Positions 5,615-25,282 are shown, counted from the stretch's first letter. The stretch: 64,000 nt of DNA from Planctomycetota bacterium (GCA_003389215.1 QQVP01000011.1:72315-136314), one strand, 5' to 3'. Made by a program: numbers and translations. Notes: a model not told the origin generated them from the sequence alone.

Positions 5615-5676
5615 ATCTACGCTCGTATAGGCACACTTGATAACGCGTGGCGATCACGATCCAAGCAATCGGAATG

Positions 5677-5717: not shown

Positions 5718-5726
5718 GATTTTGGG

Positions 5727-7238: not shown

Positions 7239-9007
7239 TGGCACACCCGTTGCTTTATGAGCGTTCGTCGCAACCAACTGTTTCGCTCGATCGCAACGCT
7301 GCCAGGAATCAAATCATGCACAACGCCACGCTCAATAACTCGAATACAAGTAATGGTCACCGCGTCGCGACTGAAGGCGACGAAACGCGTCTGCATAGTC
7401 GCATGAGTTTGAATCTTGTCGTCACTGATCCGGAGGTCTGTTCAGAACTTCGCACCTTTGATTCCGATGATGAAAGGAATCGCTACGCCCTTGCTGCGCT
7501 CAGAATCGGTGTCCACGCTATGCGTCAGGCAAGCGGCGTGATCGATGCCACGACTGTTCGAGACGAAGGCACCCGCATCGTGCAGTCGCTGCGCGATGTG
7601 TTGACGGATCACGCTAGCCGTTGCACGGGCGACATTGCCAATTCACTGAAGGGGTATTTTGATCCCGATTCGGGCCAGCTCACCCAGAGATTGAACTGTC
7701 TGGTCAAACGCGACGGTGAATTGGATGAGCTCCTGCATCGACACCTCGGGGACGATTCCTCGACGGTTGCCCAGACGCTGGCGACGCACGTTGGTGAGCA
7801 AAGCCCATTGTTCAAAATGCTCTCGCCAGAGCAGGCTGATGGCCTGATTGCATCCCTCCGTGAAGTCATTCAAGTCGCGTTGCGTTCGCAGCGCGACCAG
7901 ATCGTCCAAAACTTTTCGCTCGACGATAAATCCTCCGCACTGTCCCGCTTGCTCGCCGAAGTCACAGATGCCAATGGGGCACTGCGTAAAGGGCTTGCCG
8001 AGGATGTGGCCGAAGTACGCAATGAGTTTTCTCTCGACAATGAAGATGGTGCGCTCGCCCGGCTTGTCAAACGCGTCGAAGCAGCACAGACAGAAATCTC
8101 CGATCAGTTTTCACAGGACAACGAAGACTCTGCCATGTCGCGAATGGCACGTCTGCTTGAGACGGTCAATGGAACGGTTAAGGGTAGCCTGACGCTCGAC
8201 GATGAAAACTCGCCCCTGTCGCTGCTGCGACGCCAGTTGCTGGAAGTCATCGGGCAGATCGAGAAATCGAACACCCAATTCCATACCGAGATTCGCGAGA
8301 CAGTAGCGGCCCTGAAGGCTCGCAAACAGGAGAAGGCACGTTCGACCCGTCACGGCGACGACTTTCAGGACGCTGTAGGCGAATTCGTAGAGACTGATGC
8401 CAGAAACCGAGGCGACATTTGCGATAACACAACCTGCAAAGTCGGTCGGATTCCTCGATCAAAGACCGGGGATTTCGTGGTAACGATGGGGCCGGAATCG
8501 GCAGCAGCCGGGGGCTCGATCGTTATCGAGGCCAAACAGGAACAGGGTTACGACCTCAAGTCGATCTTGACTGAGATCGCGCAGGCCAGAACCAACCGCG
8601 ACGCAGCTGTTGGAATCTTCGTGCTGTCGTCGCTGGCAGCTCCAGAAGAGATGGAGCCGCTGGCCCGTTACGGCAACGACATTGTCATTGTCTGGGATGC
8701 AGAAGATCCACTGACGGACGTTGTACTGAATGCCGCCCTCTCGCTCGCTCGCGGACTTATCGCTGGTCAGTCGGTCGCATCCAAAGAGCGTGCTGCTGAT
8801 CTCAGCGAACTGGACAAGGCAATGCAGCGGATCGCCAAAGATGCAGGGAGCCTTGGAGACATCATCACCTGGTCGACGACCGTTGAAAACAACGGCAACA
8901 AGATCAGGACCAAAGCCGAGCGACTGAAACAGGATCTTGAAAACCAGGTTGAGCGAATAGACGAACACCTCGGGCGTCTTCGTGCCGAGTCAGCGATGAG
9001 CGCCTAA
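7238..9007 (+). CDS. Repeat-rich coiled-coil protein with C-terminal PD-(D/E)xK-like nuclease motif (RmuC/DUF2130-like architecture; family not identified)
   Basis: Frame of ORF 7166..9007. Candidate starts are ATG 7238 (TAATG overlap with the upstream stop), ATG 7316 (AGGA at 7303-7306; first in-frame ATG after the putative sigma54 start site) or ATG 7403. The C-terminus shows GDFVVTMGPES…GSIVIEAKQEQGY (D…EAK). Confidence 0.7.
   Translation: MAHPLLYERSSQPTVSLDRNAARNQIMHNATLNNSNTSNGHRVATEGDETRLHSRMSLNLVVTDPEVCSELRTFDSDDERNRYALAALRIGVHAMRQASGVIDATTVRDEGTRIVQSLRDVLTDHASRCTGDIANSLKGYFDPDSGQLTQRLNCLVKRDGELDELLHRHLGDDSSTVAQTLATHVGEQSPLFKMLSPEQADGLIASLREVIQVALRSQRDQIVQNFSLDDKSSALSRLLAEVTDANGALRKGLAEDVAEVRNEFSLDNEDGALARLVKRVEAAQTEISDQFSQDNEDSAMSRMARLLETVNGTVKGSLTLDDENSPLSLLRRQLLEVIGQIEKSNTQFHTEIRETVAALKARKQEKARSTRHGDDFQDAVGEFVETDARNRGDICDNTTCKVGRIPRSKTGDFVVTMGPESAAAGGSIVIEAKQEQGYDLKSILTEIAQARTNRDAAVGIFVLSSLAAPEEMEPLARYGNDIVIVWDAEDPLTDVVLNAALSLARGLIAGQSVASKERAADLSELDKAMQRIAKDAGSLGDIITWSTTVENNGNKIRTKAERLKQDLENQVERIDEHLGRLRAESAMSA
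7239..7254 (+). promoter_or_regulatory. Sigma54 (-24/-12) promoter consensus TGGCACacccgTTGCT
   Basis: Exact match to TGGCAC-N5-TTGC. It starts 1 nt after the last base of the activator stop codon (TAA 7236-7238). It is the only exact match I noticed in the window. Confidence 0.5.
7913..8227 (+). repeat. Four degenerate in-frame repeats encoding FSLDDKSSALSRL / FSLDNEDGALARL / FSQDNEDSAMSRM / LTLDDENSPLSLL
   Basis: Repeat starts are at 7913, 8027, 8108 and 8189 (spacing 114, 81 and 81 nt). Weaker upstream copies (YFDPDSGQLTQRL, LGDDSSTVAQTL) suggest the array begins near 7655. Confidence 0.8.
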
Positions 9008-9022
9008 AGGGGAACAGAGCGA

Positions 9023-11404
9023 ATGCCACTGAACGAAAAGGAAACCTGCAAGCAGCTGATTGAACCCGCGCTCGAATCATTGGGCTGGGATTTCGAAGGG
9101 CAACTGCGCATTGGTCCTGGCCGCGTAAATTTCAGCGGCGACAGCGCGGACTCAATGTATGATCCCACTCAGGCGATCATTGCAGATTATCTTTTGCGTT
9201 ACCGTGGCGTCCCCTTGGCGATTCTGGAAGCTAAGGGCGAATCGGAAGATGCCGAAGATGGCATGCAGCAGGCATCGCGATATGCCGATCGCCTGATGAT
9301 CCGGCACTCCATCGCATCCAATGGCCGCGAGTGGATTCTTACCGACAACAAGACCGGTGAATACGAGTCGCTTTCTGCTCCGCCATCCCCGCTGGACATC
9401 GTCAGCCGGATGGGCGTGACCATTGACTGGGATCGCTGGGAAGGTGCATTCACAGCCAACTTTCATGTCGACCAAGTGACTCGCAAGAGGACTCGCCCCT
9501 ATCAGGAAATGGCGATCGCGCAGACGCTCTGGGAATTCGCCCAGGGACGCGACCGCGCCCTGCTCCTGATGGCGACCGGAACTGGAAAAACCTTCACCGT
9601 ATTCCAGCTCATCTGGAAGCTGATGAATGGCGGTGCGCTCAGTCGGCAGCATGTTCTGTTCCTGACGGATCGCAACAGCCTGAAGGACCAGGCATACCGA
9701 GCATTCAACGCGTTTGATGCCAATGAGCGTGTGACCATCGACAAGGCGACAGTCGTCGACGGCAAGCACCAGGTCGGTAAGCTGTTCTTCGCCAATTACC
9801 AGAACCTCGACGAGGATCTGGACGGCAAGAAGGTCTACGAACACTACGATTCGGACTTCTTCGACCTTGTCGTTGTCGATGAGTGTCACCGTAGCGGCTT
9901 CGGTGACTGGTTCGGAGTGCTGGAACACTTCGGCGACGCATTGCAGCTTGGTCTCACCGCCACGCCTCGCGACCTGGAGGAGTCCAAGCGACCGCTGACT
10001 CCCGAGGAGCAGCGTCGCGATACGTATCACTATTTCGGCGAGCCGATCTTCACGTACAGCCTGCGTCGAGCGATCGACGACGGCTATCTCGTGCCGTACC
10101 TGCTCGAAGAGCGCGTCACCAACATTGACGAGGATGGGTACACGGCCGAAGACGGCAAACACTACGAAACGAAGAACTTCGAGCGTGACATCGTCATCCC
10201 CGATCGCACCAAAGCCATCGCCTCCGATTTGTGGGACGTCTTCGGCAAGTACGATCTGCGTGACGAGAAAACCATCATCTTCTGCGTAAATGACACACAC
10301 GCGTCGCTGATGGCGGCGGAACTGCGTCGGCTCTCCGGTGATACCAACTACGCGGCCCGCATCACGCGGTCAGAACGCAACAGCCACCAGTTGGAACGCA
10401 ACTTTGCGGTCGTTGGCAGCGGGAAACCGCGCGTTGCCTGCACGGTCGACCTATTGACCACCGGTTTCGATGCCCCGGACGTCAAAAACGTCGTCTTCGT
10501 GCGTCCGCTCAAGAGTGCCATCCTTTACAAGCAGATGAAAGGGCGTGGCACGCGGCTCTGCGAAGACGTCAACAAGCGTTACTTCACGATCTTCGACTAC
10601 TCCGGTGCCAGTGCCCTGGAAGATGCCGAGTTCGACGGTCATCCCGCGAACAAGCAGAAGGGCACGCTGTCCAAGTCCAAGCCGACGAAGAAGAAGGGCA
10701 AGGATGACGAGCCGGAAACACCGAAGCCGGTGGCGGAAAATGTCCACGTCGTCATGTCGACGACCAACCGCAGCATATCCTTCGGCGACGGACAATGGAT
10801 GCCGTTCGAGGAGTATGCGGCGAAATCAAAAGAGTTCATCCAGACGGTGTCGAGCAGGGACATAAGCCAGTTGCTGGCGATCTGGATCGACAAAAAGAGC
10901 CGCAAGGAACTGCGCGAGGAACTCGGCGATCAGGACATCTACACCTCAGCGTTCCGCCACTACCTGGAACTGCCAGATACGGACGATGTCGACATCCTCG
11001 CCAAGATCGGATTCGACCTGTTTCAGGTTCCGACGCGCAACGACCGGGTTGCGCGATTCTGGGATGAAGAGAACTCTTGGTACGAAACACAGTTCGGCCT
11101 GACGCTCCCGCGTCAGTCCGGTGGCATTCAAACTGGCAGCGAAGATTTCAGCATGGCCGCTGAAGACAGAGGTGCCTTCGAGATTGGCGATAACTGGAAG
11201 GTCGACTTCTGGCGGACTGCTCTTGACCACTACTCGCTGTTCGGCATCGACGATCTGGAGCAGGCACGGACCTACGCGGCTCCCCAGTTTGTCGACCAGT
11301 TTGGCAGCTTTCAGTCACTGACCACCCGCTACGGCGGAGCCCAACTTTTGAAATCAGATCTGGAGGAGGTCAAGGAGCACTTGTACGTGCCCATGGCCAA
11401 TTAG
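9023..11404 (+). CDS. hsdR: Type I restriction enzyme R subunit
   Basis: 793 aa. N-terminal nuclease motif ADYLLRYRGVPLAILEAKGE. SF2 motor motifs LLMATGTGKTFT (I), VVVDECHRS (II), GLTATP (III) and QMKGRGTR (VI). It lies 15 nt after the preceding gene and is followed by hsdM and hsdS. Confidence 0.9.
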   Translation: MPLNEKETCKQLIEPALESLGWDFEGQLRIGPGRVNFSGDSADSMYDPTQAIIADYLLRYRGVPLAILEAKGESEDAEDGMQQASRYADRLMIRHSIASNGREWILTDNKTGEYESLSAPPSPLDIVSRMGVTIDWDRWEGAFTANFHVDQVTRKRTRPYQEMAIAQTLWEFAQGRDRALLLMATGTGKTFTVFQLIWKLMNGGALSRQHVLFLTDRNSLKDQAYRAFNAFDANERVTIDKATVVDGKHQVGKLFFANYQNLDEDLDGKKVYEHYDSDFFDLVVVDECHRSGFGDWFGVLEHFGDALQLGLTATPRDLEESKRPLTPEEQRRDTYHYFGEPIFTYSLRRAIDDGYLVPYLLEERVTNIDEDGYTAEDGKHYETKNFERDIVIPDRTKAIASDLWDVFGKYDLRDEKTIIFCVNDTHASLMAAELRRLSGDTNYAARITRSERNSHQLERNFAVVGSGKPRVACTVDLLTTGFDAPDVKNVVFVRPLKSAILYKQMKGRGTRLCEDVNKRYFTIFDYSGASALEDAEFDGHPANKQKGTLSKSKPTKKKGKDDEPETPKPVAENVHVVMSTTNRSISFGDGQWMPFEEYAAKSKEFIQTVSSRDISQLLAIWIDKKSRKELREELGDQDIYTSAFRHYLELPDTDDVDILAKIGFDLFQVPTRNDRVARFWDEENSWYETQFGLTLPRQSGGIQTGSEDFSMAAEDRGAFEIGDNWKVDFWRTALDHYSLFGIDDLEQARTYAAPQFVDQFGSFQSLTTRYGGAQLLKSDLEEVKEHLYVPMAN

Positions 11405-11414: not shown

Positions 11415-12953
11415 ATGAGCAAAGCGAAAACCAAGAACGGAAACGGCTCGGTCGACAGTCGTCGGCAGGAGGTTCGGCAGATCGTCAAGAATGCTTGCGA
11501 TCAGCTGAACTCTGAAGGAGTCGATGCCCGCAACTACGTCGAACAGCTGGCCTGGCTGTTCTTCCTCAAGGCTTTTGACGAAGCCGAAACGCGGCGAGAA
11601 GAAGAAGCCGCATTTGATGACACTGGTTACGAACGCCGTCTGTCCGGCCAGTACGCCTGGTCATCGTGGGCGGCGAAGACGGACCATCCTGATGAGATGC
11701 TGGAGTTTGTCGACGGCAAGCTGTGGATCAAGCTGACCAGCCCCGATCCCAAGAAGGGCTTGGGGGACGATCCATTAGCTGAACGGTTTCGCCGCGTCTT
11801 CGACAACGTCCGCAACTACTGTCGTCGCGGTGCGTCATTCGCGAGAGTCGTAGCACAGGTCAACAAGCTGCATTTCAGCAGCGACACTGACGTGCATGTG
11901 CTGTCGGAGATTTACGAAGACCTGCTCAAACGGGTTGCAGCGGACAGCGCAGGCTATGCGGGTGAGTTCTATACCCAGCGGCACATCATTCGAGCGATGG
12001 TCGAAGTCGTTCATCCGCAGGTAGGCGACAAGGTCTACGACCCCTGTTTCGGTACGTGCGGTTTTCTGGGTGAAGCCGCCGATTACATGCGAGATCCAGA
12101 GCGGAACCCGAAGGCGAAGCAGCTGAGCGGTCGTGATCTGGAGAAATTGCAGTCGAAGACATTCTACGGCCTGGAGATCAAGCCGCTCACGTATCTGCTC
12201 GGCACGATGAACATGATCCTGCATGGGATCGAGTCAGCCAACCTGGAACTGGCCAACACGCTGGAAGTTCACAGCGACAACATCTCCGAGAAGGACCGGT
12301 ACGACGTGATCCTTTCCAATCCACCTTACGGTGGAAAGATGGCGCCTGAGTTGCAGACTAACTTTCGGGTTCGTTCAGCCGCCACCGAATGCCTGTTCCT
12401 GCAGCACATCATGCGGAACCTCGCCAGGGGTGGTCGAGCCGCCGTGATTATTCCTGAGGGCGTCCTGTTTCGTGGTGGCCCCGATCAGAAGGTGCGTCAG
12501 GAACTGCTCGAACATTTCAAAGTGCACACCATCCTGTCGCTTCCGGCTGGTTGCTTCCTGCCATACACCGGCGTGAAGACCAACGTGCTTTTCTTCGATC
12601 GCCCTGAAGCCGAGCCCAAGCCGGGCAAGTTGGCGACGAAGGACGTCTGGTATTACGAGCTGACCAACGACGGGTTCGAGTTGAAGCAAACGCGTCGCCC
12701 GATCGACGGCGATCAGCTTCCCGACTTCCTCACAAAGTGGAAGAAGCGGACCGAGGGGGACAACTCCTGGAGAGTGCCAGTCGCTGAGATCATCGAACGC
12801 GGCTACGACCTGTCTGCCAAGAATCCGAACCACAAAGATGACTACGAGCATCGACCCGCGCTCGAATTGGTTCAGTCGATCCGTGCCAAAGAAGAACGGA
12901 TCATGGATCTGCTTGGCGAGCTGGAAGCCATTTTGGAGGGTGACGATGCCTAA
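11415..12953 (+). CDS. hsdM: Type I R-M N6-adenine DNA methyltransferase subunit
   Basis: 512 aa with an HsdM_N-like N-terminus, the AdoMet motif VYDPCFGTCGFL and the catalytic motif ILSNPPYGG. Confidence 0.92.
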   Translation: MSKAKTKNGNGSVDSRRQEVRQIVKNACDQLNSEGVDARNYVEQLAWLFFLKAFDEAETRREEEAAFDDTGYERRLSGQYAWSSWAAKTDHPDEMLEFVDGKLWIKLTSPDPKKGLGDDPLAERFRRVFDNVRNYCRRGASFARVVAQVNKLHFSSDTDVHVLSEIYEDLLKRVAADSAGYAGEFYTQRHIIRAMVEVVHPQVGDKVYDPCFGTCGFLGEAADYMRDPERNPKAKQLSGRDLEKLQSKTFYGLEIKPLTYLLGTMNMILHGIESANLELANTLEVHSDNISEKDRYDVILSNPPYGGKMAPELQTNFRVRSAATECLFLQHIMRNLARGGRAAVIIPEGVLFRGGPDQKVRQELLEHFKVHTILSLPAGCFLPYTGVKTNVLFFDRPEAEPKPGKLATKDVWYYELTNDGFELKQTRRPIDGDQLPDFLTKWKKRTEGDNSWRVPVAEIIERGYDLSAKNPNHKDDYEHRPALELVQSIRAKEERIMDLLGELEAILEGDDA

Positions 12954-14124
12954 ATGGCCAACCAAGCCTCTCGGCGAACTTTGCCAGCTCATCAATGGCC
13001 GAGCGTTCAAGCCCAGCGATTGGGGCAAAGAAGGGTTGCGCATTGTTCGGATACAGAATCTCAATGATCACGCAAAACCTTTCAATCATTTTGCGGGCGA
13101 CTACAGCGAGAAGCACTACATCGACGACGGGGAAATCCTGCTTTCATGGTCGGGAACTCCCGGAACTTCCTTTGGCTGCTTTCGATGGCAGCGAGGACCA
13201 GGATTGCTCAACCAGCACATTTTCAGGGTGGAGGTTGCGGATTCGATCATCGACGGCGACTTCTTCATCTACGCCGTGAATAGCAAGCTCGACGAAATGA
13301 TTCGACAAGCGCATGGGGGCGTTGGCCTTCGTCACATTACGAAAGGGAAACTGGAAGCAATTACCCTTCCTGTGCCATCACTAGAGGAGCAGCGAAGAAC
13401 CGTAAACAAGATCAACGAATGCCTCACACGAGTGACCGAAATTGAGAGGCTTCGCCTTGAGTCGCTTACGGAAGCAGAGGTGTTGGCCCCGTCGCTCTAC
13501 GAGGCAATTGAAGGGGATGGTAAATGGCCGCGTCGGCCCGTTGGTGAAATCATCCGTCAATCTCGTAACGGACGATCCATCAAACAAGGGAATGGATCCA
13601 GTAATGGCCGTGTTCTCACTCTAACAGCGGTTCGCGAAGTGTCTCTCGACTTTGATGCCGGTAAGGCGGTTTCAATACCTGATGATGTTGCATCGCAGTT
13701 TTCGATCTCTGCTGGCGATGTATTTGTGTCGCGGTCGAATACGCGAGACCTTGTGGGCTTGTCATCCGTAGCAGAAGAGACTCCTAAAGAACGACTCATT
13801 TACCCGGATCTACTGATCAAATTGACCCCAAGTCTTGACGTCATTCGACCAAGGTTTCTGGCATATGCGCTGAGAGCATCGGATAGCCGCAGGCAAATCA
13901 AAGAGAGAGCCCTCGGTAGCAGCCAAACGATGGTCAAGATTTCTGGTGAGCGGCTGAAAGAGGTAGCGATTCCAGTACCGCCACTGGATCGCCAAGACGC
14001 GATTATCGGTCAGTTTGATCAACTGCACGACTTAGCGGCATCCATTCTTAGTGGCATGCGATCTGTCGAATTTCATCGAGTCCGAGAATCCGTACTTCGC
14101 AAAGCCTTTGCAGGGGAGCTGTAA
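12946..14124 (+). CDS. hsdS: Type I R-M specificity subunit with two target-recognition domains
   Basis: I prefer the ATG at 12946 (MPKWPTKPLGELCQLINGRAFKP…), which overlaps the hsdM stop by 8 nt, over the 12838 start of the ORF track. Two TRDs are each followed by a conserved helix (LPVPSLEEQRRTVNKI and IPVPPLDRQDAIIGQF). Confidence 0.88.
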   Translation: MPKWPTKPLGELCQLINGRAFKPSDWGKEGLRIVRIQNLNDHAKPFNHFAGDYSEKHYIDDGEILLSWSGTPGTSFGCFRWQRGPGLLNQHIFRVEVADSIIDGDFFIYAVNSKLDEMIRQAHGGVGLRHITKGKLEAITLPVPSLEEQRRTVNKINECLTRVTEIERLRLESLTEAEVLAPSLYEAIEGDGKWPRRPVGEIIRQSRNGRSIKQGNGSSNGRVLTLTAVREVSLDFDAGKAVSIPDDVASQFSISAGDVFVSRSNTRDLVGLSSVAEETPKERLIYPDLLIKLTPSLDVIRPRFLAYALRASDSRRQIKERALGSSQTMVKISGERLKEVAIPVPPLDRQDAIIGQFDQLHDLAASILSGMRSVEFHRVRESVLRKAFAGEL

Positions 14125-14129: not shown

Positions 14130-17100
14130 GTGGCTGACGTGTCGTCCCACAATGCGATCTGGCAAATGCTCGACCGAGTACGTGCCAATTCCCCGATCTC
14201 CGGCAGCGAGTTCGGTGTGGCACTCGCTGCCCTGATCTTTCTTCGCTGGGCCGATTTCGAGGAAGCCGAACGGGAAGCTATCGCCGCCTTCGACGACGTT
14301 GACTACGAACCCGTGCTCCCCGCCAAATTCCACTGGCGATCGTGGTGCAATATCCACGATCCCCGTGAGCTCGAATACCCCTTTCGAGAACTCCCCTCGG
14401 CGCTCGATCGCTTCTCCAATTCCCGCCACGACGCGATGGCCACTCAACTCCACCGCGTCGCTCCCGCCGTCGAGAAGCTGACTCGTTTACCTGCCGACAC
14501 TCTCGCCCACCTCATCCACTGGCTGGCCGACCAGCCCTTTGAGACTCCCAAAGACCGGCGAGCACTCCGCGACGTGCTGGATTTCGTGTTGCAGAACACC
14601 TACGACAAGTTTGCGGGACAGTTCTTTACGCCGATACAGATCGCGGCCCTGATGGTCGAGCTGGCCAAGCCGAAGTCAGGCGAATCGGTCTACGATCCGT
14701 GCTTTGGTTCCGCCGGCTTACTCACCGCAGCCCTGGAGATTGCGGAACACCGCGACCATGTGCGGCTAGGCGGTTCGACCTATGCGCCTGGCAAACAGCC
14801 TTTGCATCTCGCCGGTGTCGAGATCAATCAAGATGCGTACGTCATCGGCATGACACGGCTCGTACTCTCCGGTGTCAATGATCCTCAGATTGAGCTGGGG
14901 AACAGCCTCGAACGGCTGCCATCCAATAATCCCAACTCCGATGGCTTCGACATCGTCCTGGCGAATCCTCCTTGGGGCATGAAGGTCGAGCTGTACGGCC
15001 TGGATCACTACCCGATTCCAATAAAAGATTCATCGTCACTGTTTCTGCAACATGCGATCTCGCAACTTCGGCCTGGTGGGCGGGGCGTGGTAGTTGTTCC
15101 ACCAAGCCTGTTGTTTCGCTCCGGTCGCGAACAGCAACTCCGCGAATGGCTGCTTCATGAGAACACCGTTGAGGCAGTCGTCTCGATCCCGCGAGGCGCA
15201 TTCTCTCCGCATACGTCGATCGAAACCTGCTTGCTGCTGTTTCGTCGCGGAGGTACGACAAGGTCGGTACGGATGGTCAGCGCCGAATCAATCTTTGAGA
15301 AAAGCGACAAGAGTCAGATCGCAGCAGCCCCTTTTGTTTTGGCTGCGCAATTGGGTCATCACGTTCGTTCGCCTGAGCCGGGCCGCGAATGGTGGGACGT
15401 TGATATCGAAGAGCTGGCCGAACTCGACTACGACCTCACTCCTAAACGCCGGGACCGTAGCGGCCTCGAACTCATCCTGGATTCGCTTCCCAAAGAGGCG
15501 GAAATCCGTCTGCTCAAAGACTGTTGCACGGTGACAACCGGTCGCAATATCCGATCAAGCGATTTGACCCAGTCTCCACCGAGATCGAACTACGAACCAT
15601 CGGGCCAGACATTGTTCCCCGATGTTGAACAATCAGAGATCAATCCGCAAAGACCCTTCGAGTTTGCCGATACTCCGATTCCCTACATTCGCATTCGCGA
15701 TGTGGAAAAGGGACACGCGACCCGGGGTTCGTCATGGCTGATGCCTGCCGTCGCATCCACGATCGAATCGAAATGGAAGCTCCGCGCTGGAGACATCCTG
15801 CTGTCCAAGTCGGGCACGATTGGCAAAGCAGGCCTCGTTCGTAACGGAGCGGTGGGAGCAATCGCGGCGAATGGCTTCTTCGTCATCAGAGTCAAAGAAG
15901 GGACGATTGATCCGCATTACCTGCTTGCCTACCTGCAAAGCACTGAGGCCAATGCCTGGCTGGAGGATCGCGCACGAGGAACAGCCGCGAAACACCTTTC
16001 GGTTGCCTCGATCAAAGAGCTTCCGATCGCACTGCCGCCGCTACAGATCCAGCAACGCACGGCAGATCAGCACCGAAAGTTTGGTGTCGACGCACTGACA
16101 TATTTGGCGGAGCTACTCACTGAAGATGAGTCTGATTCCCTTGCGGCTGAGCTCAATGACTGGGTATCTCAAAATCTCAAGCGAGTTGAAAGCTACGAGG
16201 GTGATCCCGCCAGTCAGAATGTGCTGGAATTGCTTGAGGAAGTCGCAGACTCCCGCTGTCCAATCAACACCTGCAAAGATTGTAAGCACCCCTATTACCT
16301 GGACTACTCGACAAACTACATCGAGCCTCCAACCGATTACGCAAAGGGCATCGAGTCCCATTGCCTCGAATGTTGGCTGGGGCTTGAACCCAGGGCAGAC
16401 CATGTCGACTGCTTTGAGGACGAGACGCCGATTGGACCATGGGCAGTTGAGTTCAGAGGAGTAACGAAGCCCCTCGCAGGCGTTTCGAGCATCCCAGACC
16501 CGACGGCTCTGGTCAGCGTGCTTCAGCGAGTTGCATCGCAACTACGCGACACGGCTGCGCTCATCGATGGGAACCTGCCAAATCAGGAGCGAGCGAGGCT
16601 CCTTACGGGGCGAGTTGCCAGCCTCATCAATCGCTATACCCAGGCTTTGCTCGAAGACGCCAAGCTGGCAGTCGATGTCATATCGGCGACCGAAGATCAC
16701 TTTGGTGGGATTGACATTCGTCTTGAGATCCAAAACCGGGGTCGAGTTCCCCTACGCGATGTTCGGTTTTCAATGTACCCACCAATGGACGAGGTCGAGC
16801 CACGCGCAGTCGCGTTCATGCAACCGGGGCACCGTTATGAAATCCAGTTCCAGGGACAGAGTCAACGTCTTTCTGACGAAATAAGTGTCGCTGAAATGTG
16901 GTCTGATCCAGCTTGGACCATCAGCTGGACTGCAAGAGATCTCGCCGGGGAGGCTGTTGAAGGAACGCGAGACCTGAGCATTAGCCTTGGTTCCGATGAA
17001 ACTTGCCTGGAGAATGAGCAAGAATCGGCCGGAAACCTGGACAGCAGCCCTTACGTCTGCGGCGATCCTGTTACCCGAGAACGACACGATGTGTTCTTTG

Positions 17101-18350
17101 GGAGGGACGATCTCCTCAATCAGATCAAACGCCAGGTGTCTCAAACCGGCAACGTTGTGTTGTTGGAAGGTAATCGCCGAGCCGGAAAATCATCGGTGCT
17201 TTGGCACCTAGAAGGCGCAAACGGGGTGCCCGGATGGTTGGGTGTCTATTGCAGTTTGCAAGGCACGGAGGGCGATAGCTCTGGCGGCATTCCGACCGCC
17301 GAGGTTTTTCGCGGCGTCGCATACGAGATCGTTCAAAGCATTCGCAAGCTGAACGGTTCCGCGGTATTGCCTGATGGCACTCTGCTTGACGGAGAGCGAC
17401 GGCTGGGGATTGCGAGATCGTTGCGTCAGGGAATCAGCGACGAAAGTCCGTTTCAGGACTTCCGTGAGTACCTCGAACTAATTCTTGAAACGCTTGCCGA
17501 ACGACAGCTCGGCCTGTTGTTGATGCTTGATGAGTTCGACAAATTGCAGGAGGGAATCGACAAAGGCATTACCTCGCCCCAGGTACCCGAGAACATCCGG
17601 TTCCTTGTGCAGTCCTACCCGAGATTCTCCGCCATTCTCACTGGCTCGCGCCGACTAAAGCGGATGAGAGAGGAGTACTGGTCTGCATTGTTCGGGCTGG
17701 GCACGCGACTCGGCGTATCCGCGTTGCCGTTTGAAGCAGCGTCGAGACTGGTCACGGAGCCTGTCGCTGGCCGCCTGTCGTTCTCAAAATCTGCTGTCAG
17801 CCGCGCCTACGAATTGACCGCCGGGCAACCGTACCTATTGCAGTGCCTGTGTAATCGCGTTTTCGACATTGCTGCTCGAACCGGAGTCCGCTCGATCACT
17901 GTTGATCACGTCAACGATGCCGCTGATGCATTGGTTGAGGACAACGAGCATTTCGCCAGCCTTTGGGATTACACCGAGTTTGATCGGCGTCGATTCCTGC
18001 TCTATCTGCTCCATCGTGAGGAGAACGGCCCTGATCCAATGCGGCTGGGTGTGATCGAGGCGAAGCTGGAAGAAGCCGGAGTGGAGCTCCGTGAAGAAAT
18101 AGTTATCGCCGACCTTGAGTACCTGAGGGAACTTGAGCTTGTCGATCTGCACGGTGAGTCGTCGGGCGCGTGGTATTCCCTGACGATTCCCATGATGGGG
18201 CAGTGGTTGGACTCGCAGCAGGATTACGAGGTTCTTCGCAGCCGCGCGCGAGCCGAGGCGGAAGATATCAGTGGCAAACTCGGTGAGATCGCAGGCCTAC
18301 GCGGCGAAATTGAAGAACTTGAAGACTCAATGGATTCTGAAGATGACTGA
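14130..18350 (+). CDS. Fusion protein: HsdM-like N6-adenine methyltransferase + single HsdS-like TRD + Cys-rich (Zn-ribbon-like) segment + beta-rich segment + STAND/AAA-type ATPase + winged-helix-like C-terminus
   Basis: 1,406 aa with a GTG start 5 nt after the hsdS stop.
- MTase: VYDPCFGSAGLL (about 14690) and VLANPPWG (NPPWG 14964-14978).
- TRD, about 15510-16060: GDILLSKSGTIGKAGLV…FFVIRVKEG…HLSVASIKELPIALPPLQIQQR.
- Cys cluster: CPINTCKDCKHPYY…HCLECW (about 16255-16380).
- ATPase: FFGRDDLLNQIKRQV…VVLLEGNRRAGKSSVLWHL (Walker A about 17167-17195), LLLMLDEFDKL (Walker B about 17512-17540), ELTAGQPYLLQ. Confidence 0.85.
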   Translation: MADVSSHNAIWQMLDRVRANSPISGSEFGVALAALIFLRWADFEEAEREAIAAFDDVDYEPVLPAKFHWRSWCNIHDPRELEYPFRELPSALDRFSNSRHDAMATQLHRVAPAVEKLTRLPADTLAHLIHWLADQPFETPKDRRALRDVLDFVLQNTYDKFAGQFFTPIQIAALMVELAKPKSGESVYDPCFGSAGLLTAALEIAEHRDHVRLGGSTYAPGKQPLHLAGVEINQDAYVIGMTRLVLSGVNDPQIELGNSLERLPSNNPNSDGFDIVLANPPWGMKVELYGLDHYPIPIKDSSSLFLQHAISQLRPGGRGVVVVPPSLLFRSGREQQLREWLLHENTVEAVVSIPRGAFSPHTSIETCLLLFRRGGTTRSVRMVSAESIFEKSDKSQIAAAPFVLAAQLGHHVRSPEPGREWWDVDIEELAELDYDLTPKRRDRSGLELILDSLPKEAEIRLLKDCCTVTTGRNIRSSDLTQSPPRSNYEPSGQTLFPDVEQSEINPQRPFEFADTPIPYIRIRDVEKGHATRGSSWLMPAVASTIESKWKLRAGDILLSKSGTIGKAGLVRNGAVGAIAANGFFVIRVKEGTIDPHYLLAYLQSTEANAWLEDRARGTAAKHLSVASIKELPIALPPLQIQQRTADQHRKFGVDALTYLAELLTEDESDSLAAELNDWVSQNLKRVESYEGDPASQNVLELLEEVADSRCPINTCKDCKHPYYLDYSTNYIEPPTDYAKGIESHCLECWLGLEPRADHVDCFEDETPIGPWAVEFRGVTKPLAGVSSIPDPTALVSVLQRVASQLRDTAALIDGNLPNQERARLLTGRVASLINRYTQALLEDAKLAVDVISATEDHFGGIDIRLEIQNRGRVPLRDVRFSMYPPMDEVEPRAVAFMQPGHRYEIQFQGQSQRLSDEISVAEMWSDPAWTISWTARDLAGEAVEGTRDLSISLGSDETCLENEQESAGNLDSSPYVCGDPVTRERHDVFFGRDDLLNQIKRQVSQTGNVVLLEGNRRAGKSSVLWHLEGANGVPGWLGVYCSLQGTEGDSSGGIPTAEVFRGVAYEIVQSIRKLNGSAVLPDGTLLDGERRLGIARSLRQGISDESPFQDFREYLELILETLAERQLGLLLMLDEFDKLQEGIDKGITSPQVPENIRFLVQSYPRFSAILTGSRRLKRMREEYWSALFGLGTRLGVSALPFEAASRLVTEPVAGRLSFSKSAVSRAYELTAGQPYLLQCLCNRVFDIAARTGVRSITVDHVNDAADALVEDNEHFASLWDYTEFDRRRFLLYLLHREENGPDPMRLGVIEAKLEEAGVELREEIVIADLEYLRELELVDLHGESSGAWYSLTIPMMGQWLDSQQDYEVLRSRARAEAEDISGKLGEIAGLRGEIEELEDSMDSEDD

Positions 18351-19992
18351 TACTATGTTTCCAATTCGTAGCACTGACCACGTGCCAATGATCGGGCGAC
18401 AAGCCTTGCTGGATTCGATATGGGGCAAGCTGACAAAAGCATCGCCGGACAATCTTTCGATTGTTGGTCCCAAAGACATTGGCAAGACCGTCTTGCTGAA
18501 TGCTCTTGTGGAACGTGCAAAGCAGGACGACTCACCGTATTCGCTCGTCATCTATTGGCAGCTCGGCTACGCGCCACCCCAATCTGATCATGAATTCATT
18601 CAGCAGTTAAGTGATTTACTATTTGCTGCGATGGGGACGGACACAAACACTTACGCAGAGGCGAGAAGTGAAATAGAGAAAGGGCGTGAAAGCGATGCGG
18701 GTGTGTCCTTCATGCTTCTCCGCGAGATCATGGAAGACATTCAGAACTACCTTGAGAAATCGGTTCTGATGATTTGGGATGGTTTTGACAAGCCGCTCAG
18801 TCAAGCGCTGCTAACCGGTCAACTTTTTGGGAATCTTCGTGATCTATTCTATGGAAAACGCCACCGTGTCGTGACTGCAACACGGAAGACCCAAACGGAA
18901 CTGGCGAGAAATAAACAGGTTGAGGACAGTCCATTCTGGAACATGTTCGACGTCAATCCGGTCCGTGTAGGCCCCTTTGATGAGAACGACATTGAGCACG
19001 CATTGAGCAGTGCCTTGCTGACAATCAATCAAGGGGGAAGAAAAGAGCTAGCGAATTGGACTGGTGGCCACCCGGTGCTCCTGCTTTCGCTCCTGAACAC
19101 CTTAATGGCCTCGGGTGACAGCGAACTGACCAACGAGCACGTCAATGTCGCGGCTGGAAAGGTCGCGTCTGAACTGTCCGACTTTCTGGATAAGCTGTGG
19201 ACAGAGTGCACCGCTTCTGCAAAGAACGCATTTCAGTTAATCGTCGAAAATGACAGCCTGGACAAGGATCGTATCGGGAAAGAAGAGACACGCTACTTGC
19301 TCGCTCGCGGCTTCGCCGTTCGCGACGGCGCAAAGATAAAGTCCTCGTGTCGATTGTTTGAGCAGCATGTTCGTGGGGCTAAGCCCGACACCGGCACGTT
19401 GGACCGCTTGTTTGGTTCGTGGGAGGCCTATCAAAATGAAATTCGCACGCTCCTTGAGCTGCGAATGAAGCAAATACGCATTATAAATGCTCGCCTCCAC
19501 AAGTTGGTAAGTCAGTGTCTTGGCGACATCCCGGATTACCCAGATGACTGTCTCAATAATCTCACTCGAATTGAGGAATTGGCGCTCGATCTCATTTGGC
19601 AGCATGAATTTGACGGGGCACAGGCGATTCCGAACGATCTTGTGGCGTACTGGACGCAACACCCTCGCGATTCTGACAAAGTGATCAAGAAACGCATGGA
19701 AGACAATGACTGGGATCTGCCACGCGACAGGCTCAAGCAACTCGTCATTCTTCAACGGCTGACCGGCAGTGCACCGGACTTCGAGGCAAAAGCCAAATCA
19801 GTGTCGAAAGACACATATGTGCTTCTAAATGCCATTCACCAGTTCCGCAACCGGACGGAACATGCCGACGGCCAACATATACACGTGGGCGTCGCAGTCT
19901 CCGGCGTTCTTCTCTGCATTGAGCTCTTGAGCTGCCTGGAAAGAGAGTTGGGCGGGACTGCAGGCCAGATCACAACCGGAGGTACAACGTAG
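18343..19992 (+). CDS. STAND/AAA-type ATPase with C-terminal HEPN-like domain (Rx4H motif)
   Basis: I prefer the ATG at 18343 (MTDTMFPIRS…), which overlaps the upstream stop as ATGACTGA. Motifs: Walker A IVGPKDIGKTVLL (18466-18489), Walker B-like VLMIWDGFDK, TGGHPVLL. Near the C-terminus, LNAIHQFRNRTEHADG carries RNRTEH at 19846-19863. Confidence 0.8.
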   Translation: MTDTMFPIRSTDHVPMIGRQALLDSIWGKLTKASPDNLSIVGPKDIGKTVLLNALVERAKQDDSPYSLVIYWQLGYAPPQSDHEFIQQLSDLLFAAMGTDTNTYAEARSEIEKGRESDAGVSFMLLREIMEDIQNYLEKSVLMIWDGFDKPLSQALLTGQLFGNLRDLFYGKRHRVVTATRKTQTELARNKQVEDSPFWNMFDVNPVRVGPFDENDIEHALSSALLTINQGGRKELANWTGGHPVLLLSLLNTLMASGDSELTNEHVNVAAGKVASELSDFLDKLWTECTASAKNAFQLIVENDSLDKDRIGKEETRYLLARGFAVRDGAKIKSSCRLFEQHVRGAKPDTGTLDRLFGSWEAYQNEIRTLLELRMKQIRIINARLHKLVSQCLGDIPDYPDDCLNNLTRIEELALDLIWQHEFDGAQAIPNDLVAYWTQHPRDSDKVIKKRMEDNDWDLPRDRLKQLVILQRLTGSAPDFEAKAKSVSKDTYVLLNAIHQFRNRTEHADGQHIHVGVAVSGVLLCIELLSCLERELGGTAGQITTGGTT

Positions 19993-22240: not shown

Positions 22241-23668
22241 ATGGAACAACAGAAGGAGATTGTCGACGTATTCCTCTGCCATAACGGTGCGGACAAGGAT
22301 TGGGTCCGGAGACTTGGGGAACAAATCGAATCGGAAACGTTTGATGGAAAGTCCACAGGAAGGTCGTTGCGGGTCTTCTTCGACGAATGGGATATCGACG
22401 TAGGTCAGAATGTTCCCCAGCGGTTGAACATGGCATTGAAGGCAAGCCGGTACGTCGCAGTTATCATTTCTCCGGAGATGCTCGCAGCTCCCTGGCCAAC
22501 CTTTGAGTGGACGCACCTCGTTGCCGATGATCCTACCAATCGCCGAGGCAGGATCATTCCTTTGTTTTTTCGGGACTACTCGTTCACAACTGACACTTAC
22601 GCTGAGTTGCCTGCACCATTCAAGGCGTTGAATTGGATCGATTTCCGGTCGCAAAATGATTTCAAACAAAGTTTCCAGAAGCTAATCCGCAAGGTACGGG
22701 ACCTGCCCCCTGCCCGAGGAAAGCGGCGTCGCCCTATTGCTTCGGAGAGTGGAAGCGTCCCGCAACCACTTCACAAACCGTCTGACGAGTCCGCAGCGGC
22801 CCCGGACAAAGTGTCGGATTTTGTTCTAAGCAACCTGCTCCCTGTTGAGGATTATCCCAAGACTATCTGGGTGGCTCCTACCGATGCAAGAATGCCGAAG
22901 CATGTAAGGGACCAAGCTGGTGACACGTCTGCATTCGTCCTGCAGGACAAGAAGCTCTTGACGTTCTCGGATCTCACGATTGAAGGCCAACCGCTGCGTG
23001 CGGTTGTCGACCAGTCGAAAATTGAATCGAAGCCGGTTGGGGAATGGCGTGATGATCAAGTCCGTTGGCGGTGGATCGTCACGCTCTTGAACAAGTGTCT
23101 TCGGTCACACTTTGGTGGATTACCTATCCGACGAGACGCAAAAGGGCGTTACTACTTTATGCCAAAGCATGGCGAAGCTCGCCTTTGGAAGAATGGACAC
23201 GACCCTGAACGAACTGTCGCGGATCAAAAAACGAATGCGAGGGGCGACGTTTTCTGGGTCCATCACTCTGCACGTCTTGCATTTCAGACACTCGGGGATG
23301 CTATCTATCTTTGCATTGAGCCATCGTACGTCTTTACGACCGACGGTAAACAGCCTCTCGAAGGTAAATCGGTGGGACCGCTTTCAATCAAATGGGGTGG
23401 CAAGGAGCGAAACGCTGCAATCCTAAGGCACGTCGTGTTTTGGGCACGCACTCTGTCGAAGGGGGGCACCAAGATTGAGATAGAGACTGGAGGACTACCA
23501 ATAACGCTCTCGGGCATACCGGCCTTTGCGAGAACTACCTTTGGAATTGAGTTTGACCACATTGGCATTGGAACTTTGATTCAGCAGGCAGAGGACGAAC
23601 TAGCTCTAGCGGCTGAAGCAGTGTCATCATCCACTGACCGAGGCGATGAGGCAGAGGATGAGGACTGA
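22241..23668 (+). CDS. TIR-APAZ protein (SPARTA effector subunit)
   Basis: 475 aa. N-terminal TIR: VFLCHNGADKDWV…RVFFDEWDIDVGQN…YVAVIISPEMLAAPWPTFEW. A ~300-aa C-terminal region follows. The gene sits 3 nt upstream of a short pAgo gene. Confidence 0.85.
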   Translation: MEQQKEIVDVFLCHNGADKDWVRRLGEQIESETFDGKSTGRSLRVFFDEWDIDVGQNVPQRLNMALKASRYVAVIISPEMLAAPWPTFEWTHLVADDPTNRRGRIIPLFFRDYSFTTDTYAELPAPFKALNWIDFRSQNDFKQSFQKLIRKVRDLPPARGKRRRPIASESGSVPQPLHKPSDESAAAPDKVSDFVLSNLLPVEDYPKTIWVAPTDARMPKHVRDQAGDTSAFVLQDKKLLTFSDLTIEGQPLRAVVDQSKIESKPVGEWRDDQVRWRWIVTLLNKCLRSHFGGLPIRRDAKGRYYFMPKHGEARLWKNGHDPERTVADQKTNARGDVFWVHHSARLAFQTLGDAIYLCIEPSYVFTTDGKQPLEGKSVGPLSIKWGGKERNAAILRHVVFWARTLSKGGTKIEIETGGLPITLSGIPAFARTTFGIEFDHIGIGTLIQQAEDELALAAEAVSSSTDRGDEAEDED

Positions 23669-23671
23669 CCA

Positions 23672-25282
23672 ATGAATGAGAAGCGAAGCCAACGAAGCCA
23701 AGGTCGATCACGTGCACAACGCTTGTCCGAATCCCTCTTGCGAGCGTCAGCCCCTTCATTTCACGCTCGGCATATTGCAGAGCCGAAACTCGTTTTCGCC
23801 AATCAGCACTTATGCGAAGACCCGAAGACAGGTTTATCCGAGTATGGCCCCGCTGCTCTCGACGGAACTCCCCGGACGGCTATTCGCGTTGGCGTGATCG
23901 GTAGTGGGGACTCGATTCAAAGACTAGGTAACTGGGTTGAATCGGCGCGTTCGCGAATCTATCCCGGACTGAACTCAAAAGGGAAACCGTTTGACCCGCT
24001 GTTTGCTCCGAGCTTTCCGGGATTCGGTTTGGATAGTCCGTACAGTTGTGAAGTCGAGTTCGATGATCGGCTCACTGTAACTCTCACCGAACGGGAGCTC
24101 ACCATGATAGTCGCTGCGGGTGAGTTTTCAGCGCGAGTGCAGGTCGCGGTCGAGTTGATCTCGGCAAAACTGAGTGTCCTTGCCGACCGGGAACCTGCCC
24201 CTGACGTTGTTGTGTTGGCAATGCCGAAGGATGTGGAGGACGCGATCGGACCAGAAGCCCGCGCAGGCCAAACTCGACCTATTCGGCTGACGCCTCTTCA
24301 AAAAAAGGAAAGAAAAAGACGGGAGGAGGACAAGCAGCGAGGACAGTTGCTACTTCGATTCGAGTCAGAGGATGTATCGGAGCCGGTGACTCCTTCAAAC
24401 CAATTCCGCGACTTTCACAACAGCATCAAAGCACACGCAATGAAAAGTGGTCTGGCAACGCAGCTTGTCTGGCACAGCACTCTCGCTCGTTCGCGCGGCA
24501 AAGAAGATCCCGCTACGACGGCTTGGAATTTCTTCACAGCACTTTACTACAAATCTGGAAACGTGCCGTGGCGTTTGAATTTTGGAGCAACTCGGACTTG
24601 CTATGTCGGAATCACGTTTTATCGAGAATCGTCAGATCCAGGCGCTCCCACGCGAACATGCCTCGCTCAAGCATTCTCAGAGAGTGGTGAAGGTCTTGTT
24701 CTGCGGGGGGAACGGGTCACGTGGGATAAGGAGCGCGACAGGAAGCCGCACCTCAACCGCGCTGACTCGGAAGCAGTTCTTCGGCGAGTCTTGGAGCTGT
24801 ATCGGGATCATTTCGACGAAAGGCCCCACCGTGTGGTTTTACACAAGACATCTAGATACTGGCCCGAGGAACTCCAAGGATTTAGAGCTGCGTTGGACGA
24901 CATCCATTCATACGACTTCCTTGCATTAGAACGAAGAGGGCTTCGTTTTTTGAGGCTAGGAAAAGAACCGCCGGTCCGAGGAACCATGATTGAACTTGGT
25001 GACCGCGACTACCTCGTGTTTACCCAAGGGTACGTGCCTTTCATCAGGCAGTACCCTGGCATGAGGATTCCGAATCCTCTTGAAGTTGTTGAACATCACG
25101 GAGACTCTTCTGGTGAACGCGTCTGTACCGAGATCCTGGCGCTCACAAAACTGAACTGGAATACTTGCAAGTTTGCCAGTGGCGACCCAATCACAACGTC
25201 TTTTTCGAGACAGGTGGCGACCATCATTAAAGAGCTGCCAGAAGGAGTGACGCCCGCAACCAAGTATCGCTTCTACATGTAA
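23672..25282 (+). CDS. Short prokaryotic Argonaute (MID-PIWI only; SPARTA sensor subunit)
   Basis: 536 aa, too short for the N/PAZ lobes. PIWI-type segments: ALYYKSGNVPWRL, CYVGITFY and RVVLHKTSRYWPEE. Paired with TIR-APAZ upstream. Confidence 0.85.
   Translation: MNEKRSQRSQGRSRAQRLSESLLRASAPSFHARHIAEPKLVFANQHLCEDPKTGLSEYGPAALDGTPRTAIRVGVIGSGDSIQRLGNWVESARSRIYPGLNSKGKPFDPLFAPSFPGFGLDSPYSCEVEFDDRLTVTLTERELTMIVAAGEFSARVQVAVELISAKLSVLADREPAPDVVVLAMPKDVEDAIGPEARAGQTRPIRLTPLQKKERKRREEDKQRGQLLLRFESEDVSEPVTPSNQFRDFHNSIKAHAMKSGLATQLVWHSTLARSRGKEDPATTAWNFFTALYYKSGNVPWRLNFGATRTCYVGITFYRESSDPGAPTRTCLAQAFSESGEGLVLRGERVTWDKERDRKPHLNRADSEAVLRRVLELYRDHFDERPHRVVLHKTSRYWPEELQGFRAALDDIHSYDFLALERRGLRFLRLGKEPPVRGTMIELGDRDYLVFTQGYVPFIRQYPGMRIPNPLEVVEHHGDSSGERVCTEILALTKLNWNTCKFASGDPITTSFSRQVATIIKELPEGVTPATKYRFYM

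Follow-up and report, generated by a model that had tools for sequence, protein, structure and literature searches.

We describe here two adjacent genes, named P1 and P2, on a 64,000-nt stretch of DNA from a Planctomycetota bacterium (GCA_003389215.1, QQVP01000011.1:72315-136314). The whole stretch is referred to as the window, and all coordinates are counted within it unless another locus is named. P1 is the open reading frame (ORF) 14130-18350 on the + strand, which starts with GTG and encodes 1406 aa; P2, the ORF 18343-19992 on the same strand, starts with ATG and encodes 549 aa. The genes are closely packed: the stop codon TAA of the upstream hsdS gene at 14122-14124 leaves a gap of 5 nt before the GTG at 14130, and P1 and P2 overlap by the 8 nt ATGACTGA at 18343-18350. 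An earlier reading of the window, made from the sequence alone (in the following, the sequence-only reading), had reported these two distances and had taken the genes for a candidate undescribed two-gene defence system in which restriction is replaced by an RNase. The distances are found in the sequence as reported. It is also in good agreement with the first part of this proposal that P2 and the ATPase half of P1 match no defence model of PADLOC v2 (database of 2023) or NCBIfam. The second part is only partly tenable, as the genes upstream of P1 make clear.

From the N- to the C-terminus, P1 comprises a paralogue of the Type I methyltransferase HsdM (residues 1-450), a single target recognition domain (TRD, ~505-650), a helical spacer with a Cys-rich insert of ~45 aa (~715-760), a beta-sandwich (~845-950), an ATPase of the ORC/Cdc6-STAND type with a winged helix (~980-1365), and an acidic, long C-terminal helix. 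In the Pfam scan, residues 148-440 match N6_Mtase with 158.7 bits, accompanied by a weak match of HsdM_N, and residues 547-646 match the TRD family Methylase_S (43 bits, one TRD only). From residue 978 on, a P-loop ATPase is recognised that matches AAA_16, nSTAND1 and ATPase_2. The translation holds the methyltransferase motifs I (DPCFGSAG) and IV (NPPW) as well as Walker A (GNRRAGKS) and Walker B (LMLDEFD). P2 consists of an ATPase of the same type with a winged helix (~15-345; Walker A GPKDIGKT, Walker B MIWDGFD) and a family-specific, all-alpha C-domain (~352-536) with an invariant H507. The ATPase of P2 reaches 33.8 bits for AAA_35, for which the cut-off is 27, and also matches NACHT and AAA_16. 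At its end, P2 carries a domain of ~190 aa that holds the motif FRNRTEH, an instance of Rx4H. The methyltransferase and TRD of P1 were thus correctly named in the sequence-only reading, as was the lack of a DNA nuclease motif, since Pfam, PADLOC and NCBIfam recognise no nuclease family in P1 or P2.

The pair is widespread. In a survey of one genome per GTDB species, P2 homologues are located at 64 loci from about a dozen phyla, comprising Planctomycetota, Desulfobacterota, Spirochaetota, Verrucomicrobiota, Cyanobacteria, Acidobacteriota, Chloroflexota, Armatimonadota and others; Gamma- and Betaproteobacteria are represented as well. The closest relatives of the window locus belong to Gimesia and Planctopirus. 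Among the isolates with the cassette are Planctopirus hydrillae JC280, Variovorax paradoxus NBRC 15149, Pseudomonas sp. KNUC1026 and Alteromonas gracilis J4. Upstream DNA of 1.3 kb or more is available at 55 loci, and at 49 of them a P1-type ATPase is encoded immediately 5' of P2; hence the co-occurrence across genomes on which the sequence-only reading depended is indeed observed. Where at least 4.3 kb of upstream DNA is available, the full fusion of methyltransferase, TRD and ATPase is present at 37 of 43 loci, in ORFs of 1255-1440 aa, and the same 8-nt overlap of P1 and P2 recurs in many of the fusion loci. Protein searches give a similar picture. At 90% identity, the homologues of P2 fall into no fewer than 172 clusters (scored matches among 8,000 candidates), almost all of ~530 aa, to which annotators have given the names "ATP-binding protein", "AAA-like" or "NACHT domain protein". 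For P1, more than 460 homologous clusters were found, nearly all of ~1300 aa with the same fusion and annotated simply as "N-6 DNA methylase". Three reverse look-ups that started from P1 homologues led to the same cassette neighbourhood, which is fragmented in one case. P1 and P2 form a translationally coupled and co-inherited pair across phyla. Further copies of the pair are located beside Zorya, beside CBASS, or within conjugative elements, and no match to it occurs in INPHARED phages or IMG/VR contigs.

The operon that ends in P1 and P2

An upstream flank of 9 kb or more is available at 34 loci, and 23 of these carry hsdR, hsdM and hsdS of one particular family directly 5' of P1 and in the same operon. 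The HsdM proteins of these loci are 72-92% identical to the HsdM of the window, and the hsdR orthologues show 69-92% identity. At two further loci, an operon hsdR-P1-P2 is found. The pair follows a complete restriction-modification (R-M) system at most loci, so restriction is not replaced by an RNase, and the view of P1 and P2 as a self-contained two-gene system is not supported. The conserved unit is larger: it consists of an RtcR-like activator, a sigma-54 promoter, optionally hsdR-hsdM-hsdS, and P1 and P2, which are normally its last two genes.

In the window, the unit is headed by the gene of a sigma-54 enhancer-binding activator (5637-7238, + strand), whose true start is likely the Met near 5727. 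The protein combines a CARF-like N-domain, an AAA+ domain with the GAFTGA motif at residue 286 (Sigma54_activat, 230.8 bits) and a C-terminal helix-turn-helix domain. Together with a cognate -24/-12 promoter, this is the complete set of features of an RtcR-type activator. Its orthologues (51-62% identity) head the cassette at at least 17 loci, including loci without hsdRMS, and the orthologue of one locus (L066) matches RtcR PF06956 with confidence. The sigma-54 promoter element TGGCACACCCGTTGCT (7239-7254, + strand) starts 1 nt past the stop codon of the activator gene and follows the pattern TGGCAC-N5-TTGCT. The same element, with at least 9 of 11 matches, is located no more than 45 nt from the activator end at 15 of 17 loci, compared to a background of 2.5% per 125 nt. 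Sigma-54-like elements were also observed 50-115 nt 5' of P1 at four loci without an adjacent activator gene (L042 at 6052, L048 at 6039, L049 at 6035, L061 at 5906), which suggests that sigma-54 dependence is general to the module.

The restriction genes of the window carry the usual Type I features. HsdR (9023-11404, + strand) has a PD..ExK nuclease motif (ILEAK), a superfamily 2 (SF2) motor and an EcoEI_R_C domain; Pfam reports ResIII (133.9 bits), HSDR_N and EcoEI_R_C, and PADLOC reports REase_I (E = 1e-94). HsdM (11415-12953, + strand) is a canonical Type I methyltransferase with 222.7 bits for N6_Mtase and 53 bits for HsdM_N. HsdS (12838-14124, + strand) is a specificity subunit with two TRDs, matched by Methylase_S in two stretches; its homology begins at residue 38, which places the true start near 12950. 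Between the promoter and hsdR lies u613 (7316-9007, + strand), a lineage-specific gene without an assigned function. Its longest ORF starts at 7166, and 7316 is the first in-frame ATG past the promoter. Conservation of u613 is limited to the closest relatives, L001 and L004. Searches of Pfam, PADLOC, NCBIfam and PDB gave neither a significant family match nor a structural relative for u613, and the faint match to Cmr2_N/Cas10 has E = 0.005. Distant homologues of u613 are located 3' of P2 at two other loci (L003 3494-4948 and L005 11654-12991), and in both cases the gene is associated with a second sigma-54-like element in front of it (L003 at 3592, L005 at 11634).

Reduced forms of the operon exist. 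The form hsdR-P1-P2, with 4- to 8-nt gene overlaps and without any other M or S gene, was found in Novipirellula rosea (L041) and on a plasmid of Acinetobacter ursingii. P1 and P2 stand alone in Marinomonas, inside a conjugative element, and in Microbulbifer, between a dynamin-like pair and Zorya.

Domains of P1 and P2 across the family

With its motifs I and IV, the head of P1 has the features of an HsdM-type N6-adenine methyltransferase. It shows 33% identity with the HsdM encoded next to it (E = 3e-50) and shares with this protein an unusual N-terminal AAFDD motif; probably, it arose by duplication of the neighbouring HsdM family. Between the TRD of P1 and each of the two TRDs of the adjacent HsdS, the identity is only 22-24%. 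This similarity concerns the framework only, and the idea that P1 and HsdS have the same specificity was rejected.

The evolution of the head departs from that of a Type I specificity subunit. In the same 25 operons, the mean pairwise identity amounts to 79% for HsdM and 29% for HsdS, as is usual for Type I systems, in which the methyltransferase is conserved and the specificity subunit hypervariable. The corresponding values for P1 are 47% for the methyltransferase domain, 54% for the TRD and 61% for the ATPase. In place of two hypervariable TRDs, P1 has a single TRD with 54% identity, as compared to 29% in HsdS. This TRD does not diversify, and thus points to one conserved target rather than to strain-specific sites.

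The state of motif IV divides the family. Wherever P2 has the sequence RNRxxH, motif IV of P1 is canonical (NPPW or NPPF; ~20 of 20 loci). In ~16 loci of the other clade it is degenerate and reads QPPV, APPW, TPPW, VPPF, HPPV or NPPI/V. All pairs without an adjacent hsdR belong to this degenerate group, and so does the hsdR-P1-P2 operon of Acinetobacter. Among pairs with a full-length P1 that have no hsdM of the same family, all are degenerate in motif IV except that of Novipirellula rosea. The ATPase motifs are kept where motif IV is degenerate. Methylation by P1 is dispensable in these other lineages; in the window, where the motifs are intact, P1 probably also methylates DNA. The proposal of the sequence-only reading that P1 marks self DNA and reads its target is therefore only partly borne out: the methyltransferase looks intact in the clade of the window, but motif IV has decayed in ~16 loci, and the TRD is more conserved than the methyltransferase domain.

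Two peculiarities of P1 should be mentioned. The Cys-rich insert of the window protein (CPxNxCxxC...CLxCW, residues ~715-760, window 16270-16410) is probably a zinc ribbon. It is common only to the closest planctomycete relatives (P0121, P0124 and P0125) and occupies the position at which many P1 orthologues carry an RNxxAH motif behind the TRD. We considered this RNxxAH region as a second HEPN domain and rejected it, because the matches are sub-threshold only (HEPN_Swt1, E = 0.057; HEPN_RiboL-PSP, E = 0.015). A homology of the region to the C-domain of P2 could not be shown either; hhalign aligns the 17-residue motif only, with a probability of 0.8%. In Novipirellula herctigrandis (L020 4504-10008), the P1 orthologue has 1834 aa, with HTH_17 before the TRD and two tandem ATPase modules before P2.

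For both ATPases, AlphaFold (AF2) models were made from alignments of homologues. The models, which cover P2 and residues 651-1406 of P1, reach pLDDT (predicted local distance difference test) scores of 88 and 82, respectively. In each of them the ATPase is followed by a helical lid and then by a winged helix. Foldseek matches the P2 model to 2qen/2fna, ORC/Cdc6, NLR, CED-4 and Avs3, and the P1 model to ORC1/Cdc6 on top, then to NLR and Apaf-1. Among solved structures, ORC1/Cdc6 and two ATPases from archaea (2qen and 2fna) are nearest to both ATPases, and STAND proteins (plant NLR resistosomes, Apaf-1, CED-4, Avs3) come next. All parts that define a STAND protein, namely P-loop, Walker A and B, helical GxP domain and winged helix, are found in both; neither of the two proteins has a C-terminal repeat sensor domain. 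The matches to NACHT, NB-ARC and nSTAND1 are below the cut-offs, and that of P2 to AAA_35 is above. Across the family, both ATPases show almost no variation in Walker A, Walker B and the sensor motifs. The profile-profile comparison of P2 with P1 by hhalign (probability 95.9%, E = 6e-9, 265 columns) pairs the GxP-type motifs TGGHP of P2 and TAGQP of P1. It supports homology of the two ATPases, and with it the term "paralogous ATPases" and the shared ATPase type claimed from the sequence alone.

The C-domain of P2 is helical throughout (residues 360-536 in the AF2 model). Its motif is located between the helices 489-501 and 515-536, and thus before the last long helix, a layout that is compatible with HEPN. 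With the whole P2 model, Foldseek returns ATPase matches only. In the alignment of the clade to which the window belongs, the motif R502-N-R-T-E-H507, in its general form R502-N-R-x-x-H507, is invariant in 26 of 26 members. As judged from this motif (RNRxEH), the C-domain is a probable HEPN-like RNase in the clade of the window. When 1.84 billion representatives were searched with a C-domain profile, 337 clusters (50% identity) were collected, and among the best 150 of these 337 almost all have the architecture of P2. Exceptions are fusions of N6_Mtase with the C-domain (P0255) and of FHA, N6_Mtase, TRD and C-domain (P0364), which tie a P1-type head and the C-domain functionally together even without the ATPases. 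Free-standing ORFs of ~200 aa, which comprise the C-domain with RNRxQH, were observed at two loci (L046 10073-10675 and L058 5780-6436). They start within the linker region of P2 and may be truncation remnants. The first of them is located behind a different Type I R-M system and an AAA_15/DUF3696 ATPase.

Candidate mechanisms

From a biological point of view, P1 and P2 possibly form the conserved core of a defence module that has not been named and is derived from Type I R-M, in which an ATPase switch would connect a sensor to an effector. We tentatively prefer this reading and put its probability somewhat short of one half. The RtcR-like CARF activator would switch on the operon at the sigma-54 promoter upon RNA damage associated with infection, the signal being, by analogy with RtcR, RNA ends with 2',3'-cyclic phosphates. 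The HsdM-TRD head of P1 would bind a conserved ligand, be it a DNA feature, a methylation state, or one of the anti-restriction proteins that mimic DNA and act against Type I enzymes. Binding of the ligand would drive the nucleotide-dependent co-assembly of the P1 and P2 ATPases, and the assembly would activate the C-domain of P2, the putative RNase of the clade of the window. Where HsdR is present, the assembly may license it or back it up, so that HsdR would be either a partner or the guarded enzyme. Ligand binding, co-assembly and output of the module are all steps that we infer. A decoy for DNA-mimic anti-restriction proteins fits the data, because the TRD is conserved and catalysis is dispensable. 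An ATP-gated recognition module for HsdR fits equally well, since hsdR-P1-P2 operons exist and the ATPases resemble ORC/Cdc6.

The sensor-switch-effector reading can be sharpened to an NLR-like guard of Type I restriction. Here, a duplicated HsdM-TRD with dispensable catalysis would serve as bait for a conserved phage determinant, the pair of STAND/ORC-type ATPases as the switch, and a new all-alpha domain as the effector, within an operon that is induced via the RtcR-like activator and sigma-54 and includes the guarded enzyme. In this specific form, the proposal is rather doubtful.

Several observations weigh against the preferred reading. The Rx4H motif, which was predicted to be an RNase motif from the sequence alone, is present in P2 and invariant within the clade, but its Arg is replaced (G[DN][FYL]GQH) in about half of the P2 family, and only the His is invariant family-wide. 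Moreover, Rx4H is missing from both P1 and P2 in at least 16 operons. Therefore, an RNase cannot be the universal output of the module, and the notion that one Rx4H is always supplied by either protein has to be rejected. A Pfam scan of eight P2 C-domains, with E values up to 10, yields no HEPN family, and the C-domain profile finds no HEPN protein among the PDB sequences. The activator of the window matches RtcR PF06956 with E = 8.6e-4 and the NCBIfam RtcR model with 361.9 bits, both below the curated thresholds. Furthermore, a sigma-54-inducible Type I R-M system is hard to reconcile with constant self-protection unless internal promoters exist; counts of internal sigma-70 promoters and of intrinsic terminators in the operon are not above those of shuffled controls and are thus uninformative. 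Finally, the intact methyltransferase motifs throughout the RNRxxH clade argue that methylation matters there, which would fit the model of the sequence-only reading equally.

In that model, P1 methylates self DNA, and unmethylated foreign sites trigger the assembly of its ATPase with P2, the release of a HEPN RNase and abortive infection, with self and non-self told apart in the manner of R-M and all without a DNA nuclease. The strict coupling of canonical motifs I and IV to RNRxxH at ~20 of 20 loci speaks in its favour, as do the invariance of Rx4H in the clade of the window, the homology of the two ATPases, and the existence of pairs without an adjacent hsdR. We nevertheless regard this model as unlikely, although it keeps some probability for the clade of the window, where the methyltransferase motifs are intact. 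In the pairs without an hsdM of the same family, motif IV is degenerate, and they lack Rx4H as well; the only exception, Novipirellula rosea, is flanked by a divergent hsdR. The TRD is conserved and not diversifying, HsdR resides in the same operon at most loci and is the sole partner at two, and the C-domain is without detectable membership in a HEPN family.

A different division of labour would have the ATPases load or regulate the methyltransferase-TRD part of P1 on DNA, similar to BREX and MANTIS, with the complex recruiting or licensing HsdR for the restriction of unmodified DNA and the C-domain of P2 acting as a co-regulator and not as an RNase. P1 and P2 would then be an alternative, ATP-gated recognition module of the Type I motor. 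The hsdR-P1-P2 operons without hsdM or hsdS, with their short overlaps, and the proximity of the ATPases to the ORC/Cdc6 clade are in good agreement with such a role. There is also precedent: in MANTIS, an AAA+ protein of the ORC/Cdc6 clade and a co-regulator load the methyltransferase, while restriction is carried out by a helicase-nuclease (bioRxiv 10.64898/2026.09.23.753747), and in Hma/BR type-1 systems a methyltransferase and a helicase-nuclease occur together with an ATPase(-HEPN) (PMC12839542). However, motif IV reads HPPV in one of the two hsdR-P1-P2 loci, which makes self-protection by methylation doubtful. Most operons already possess complete hsdM and hsdS genes, some pairs have no helicase-nuclease nearby, and none of the PADLOC models for Hma, Gao_RL or BrxC is matched (best BrxC, E = 0.011). 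Altogether, this licensing role appears improbable. Still less can be said for the view that the pair is no immune effector at all, and instead represents either an ATP-regulated epigenetic or regulatory methyltransferase, or a decaying hsdM/hsdS duplicate that rides with a mobile Type I R-M system. The origin of P1 in the neighbouring HsdM family, the decay of its catalytic motif in some lineages and the plain label N-6 DNA methylase assigned by the pipelines are what one would expect of it. Against this stand the strong purifying selection on the ATPase motifs and on the His of the C-domain across about a dozen phyla, the preserved gene overlap, the consistent location of the pair in defence islands and mobile elements, and the proteins in which the methyltransferase head is fused straight to the C-domain. 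We consider it very unlikely.

Genomic surroundings and comparison with known systems

Every gene between 5637 and 39173 is located on the + strand, so that the RtcR-like activator is followed by ~34 kb of tightly spaced defence genes. Their order is activator, u613, hsdRMS, P1, P2, GmrSD-DUF5655, TIR-APAZ, short prokaryotic Argonaute (pAgo), a 2567-aa protein, an SNF2 helicase and a further helicase. The gene next to P2 (19992-22097, + strand) overlaps the P2 stop codon by 1 nt and encodes a Type IV nuclease of the GmrSD type that carries DUF5655 at its C-terminus (GmrSD_N, GmrSD_C and DUF5655; PADLOC Orf5, E = 1e-199, and HEC-06). It is absent 3' of P2 at all other loci. TIR-APAZ and the short pAgo behind it (22241-25282, + strand; PADLOC pAgo_I, E = 1e-150) form a SPARTA-like pair, and a pAgo of ~29% identity is also found 3' of P2 at three other loci (L001, L002 and L004). 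We considered GmrSD and pAgo as parts of the module and rejected them as neighbours only, since no gene 3' of P2 recurs at more than three loci. The region 25312-39173 (+ strand) encodes the 2567-aa protein with Sacsin/HATPase-like N-terminal modules, a DrmD-related SNF2 helicase and a second SF2 helicase. An SNF2 helicase and Sacsin-like pair also follows P2 in Novipirellula rosea (L041 11563-17961), and the combination of a Sacsin/HATPase-like protein with an SNF2 helicase may be another recurrent defence module. Farther downstream, on the - strand, five tandem paralogous ORFs of 782-809 aa (45832-58076) were observed, one of which was examined and is an arylsulfatase (PDB 4cxk/1hdh, E = 3e-62). 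Tandem sulfatase arrays are typical of planctomycetes, and the array, like the relatives of the locus in Gimesia and Planctopirus, points to a planctomycete genome.

The island 5637-39173 fits the pattern of the RtcR-led superoperons of the CoCoNuT loci (Bell et al., eLife 2024, PMC11090510). There, an RtcR homologue at the 5' end is followed by co-directional defence genes, including HsdR/M/S and HEPN-bearing components. These superoperons end in CoCoNuT, a McrBC-type system, whereas the conserved 3' partner in the window is the P1-P2 pair, and genes like P1 and P2 are not among the components given in the passages on which we draw (PMC11090510). No McrBC-type genes were recognised among the scanned proteins of the window.

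P1-P2 belongs to no named family. PADLOC v2 recognises only the head of P1, as MTase_I, Specificity_I, mad2 and mad5. None of its models for PrrC/RloC, Hma, Gao_RL/MANTIS, BREX or Avs matches the P1 ATPase half or P2 with E <= 0.001; the best are BrxC with the above E value and PDC-S01 with 0.024. Likewise, NCBIfam and Pfam hold no model for the P1 ATPase half or P2 as such, and no description of the pair was found in the freely accessible literature that was searched. Membership in MADS, to which the PADLOC matches to mad2, mad5 and mad8 could point, was rejected. The NCBIfam models MAD2 and MAD5 reach 71.9 and 51.3 bits, with cut-offs of 720 and 400, respectively, and the mad8 match (PADLOC, E = 0.0026 to 3e-5) covers the P-loop region alone. 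The pair is akin to two groups of systems: the back-up modules of an NTPase and an effector that are linked to R-M, and methylation-based defence that is gated by an ATPase.

In the first group, PrrC of EcoprrI, an anticodon nuclease in a Type Ic R-M operon, and RloC resemble P1-P2 in that an NTPase fused to a C-terminal HEPN-type RNase domain, a putative one in P2, is encoded within a Type I R-M operon, and they presumably serve as a second line should restriction be overcome. PrrC differs as a single protein with an ABC-type ATPase that is kept silent by the R-M complex. P1-P2, in contrast, has two ATPases of the ORC/Cdc6-STAND type, one of them on its own HsdM-TRD head, an Rx4H motif that is not family-wide, and no PADLOC match to PrrC. 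Ronin comes close to the decoy version of our reading. It consists of an HsdS-HsdM decoy and the toxin RonA, is triggered by anti-restriction DNA mimics, and does not need the catalysis of HsdM (bioRxiv 10.1101/2023.04.06.535777). A Type I M/S-like sensor with a dispensable methyltransferase activity is tied to a killing effector in Ronin, and would be so in P1-P2. In Ronin, however, HsdM and HsdS are separate proteins, the toxin is a membrane protein of 61 aa, and ATPases are absent, whereas the bait of P1 would be fused to an ATPase switch and a trigger such as Ocr or ArdA is hypothetical.

The systems centred on Hma/DUF499, which are related to BREX, and MANTIS (Gao_RL) are methylation-based. 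They share with P1-P2 an AAA+ ATPase that resembles ORC/Cdc6 and in these systems often bears a HEPN fusion, a methyltransferase for N6-adenine that possesses a TRD, and a helicase-nuclease; in MANTIS, the methyltransferase is loaded by the ATPase. Their ATPases are of the DUF499/BrxC type, their methyltransferases have nested TRDs, and their helicase-nucleases are of the PLD or PD-(D/E)xK type. In P1-P2, an HsdM paralogue and a Type I TRD are covalently joined to the ATPase, the motor-nuclease is a canonical HsdR, and there is no match at the level of models. With Avs and other bacterial NLR-like STAND proteins, the pair has in common the P-loop switch, the helical GxP domain, the winged helix and a predicted, ligand-induced oligomerisation. 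It differs from them by the methyltransferase-TRD as sensor in place of repeats, by its heteromeric nature, and by top structural matches to ORC/Cdc6 and not to STAND proteins.

If functional, P1-P2 would represent a widespread additional family among the back-up defences linked to R-M, with 337 C-domain clusters and a range of about a dozen phyla, the members of which are at present filed as "N-6 DNA methylase" (P1) and "ATP-binding protein" (P2). Three features are unusual: a methyltransferase-TRD that is covalently wired to an NLR/ORC-like ATPase switch, a recognition domain that is conserved and not diversifying, and the control of a Type I restriction operon by sigma-54 and an RtcR-like activator, implying that the operon is inducible. 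The pair thereby bears on the gating of methylation-based immunity by ATPases, a question that BREX, MANTIS and MADS also pose, on the guarding of Type I enzymes by decoys, and on a path from RNA damage signalling to DNA restriction.

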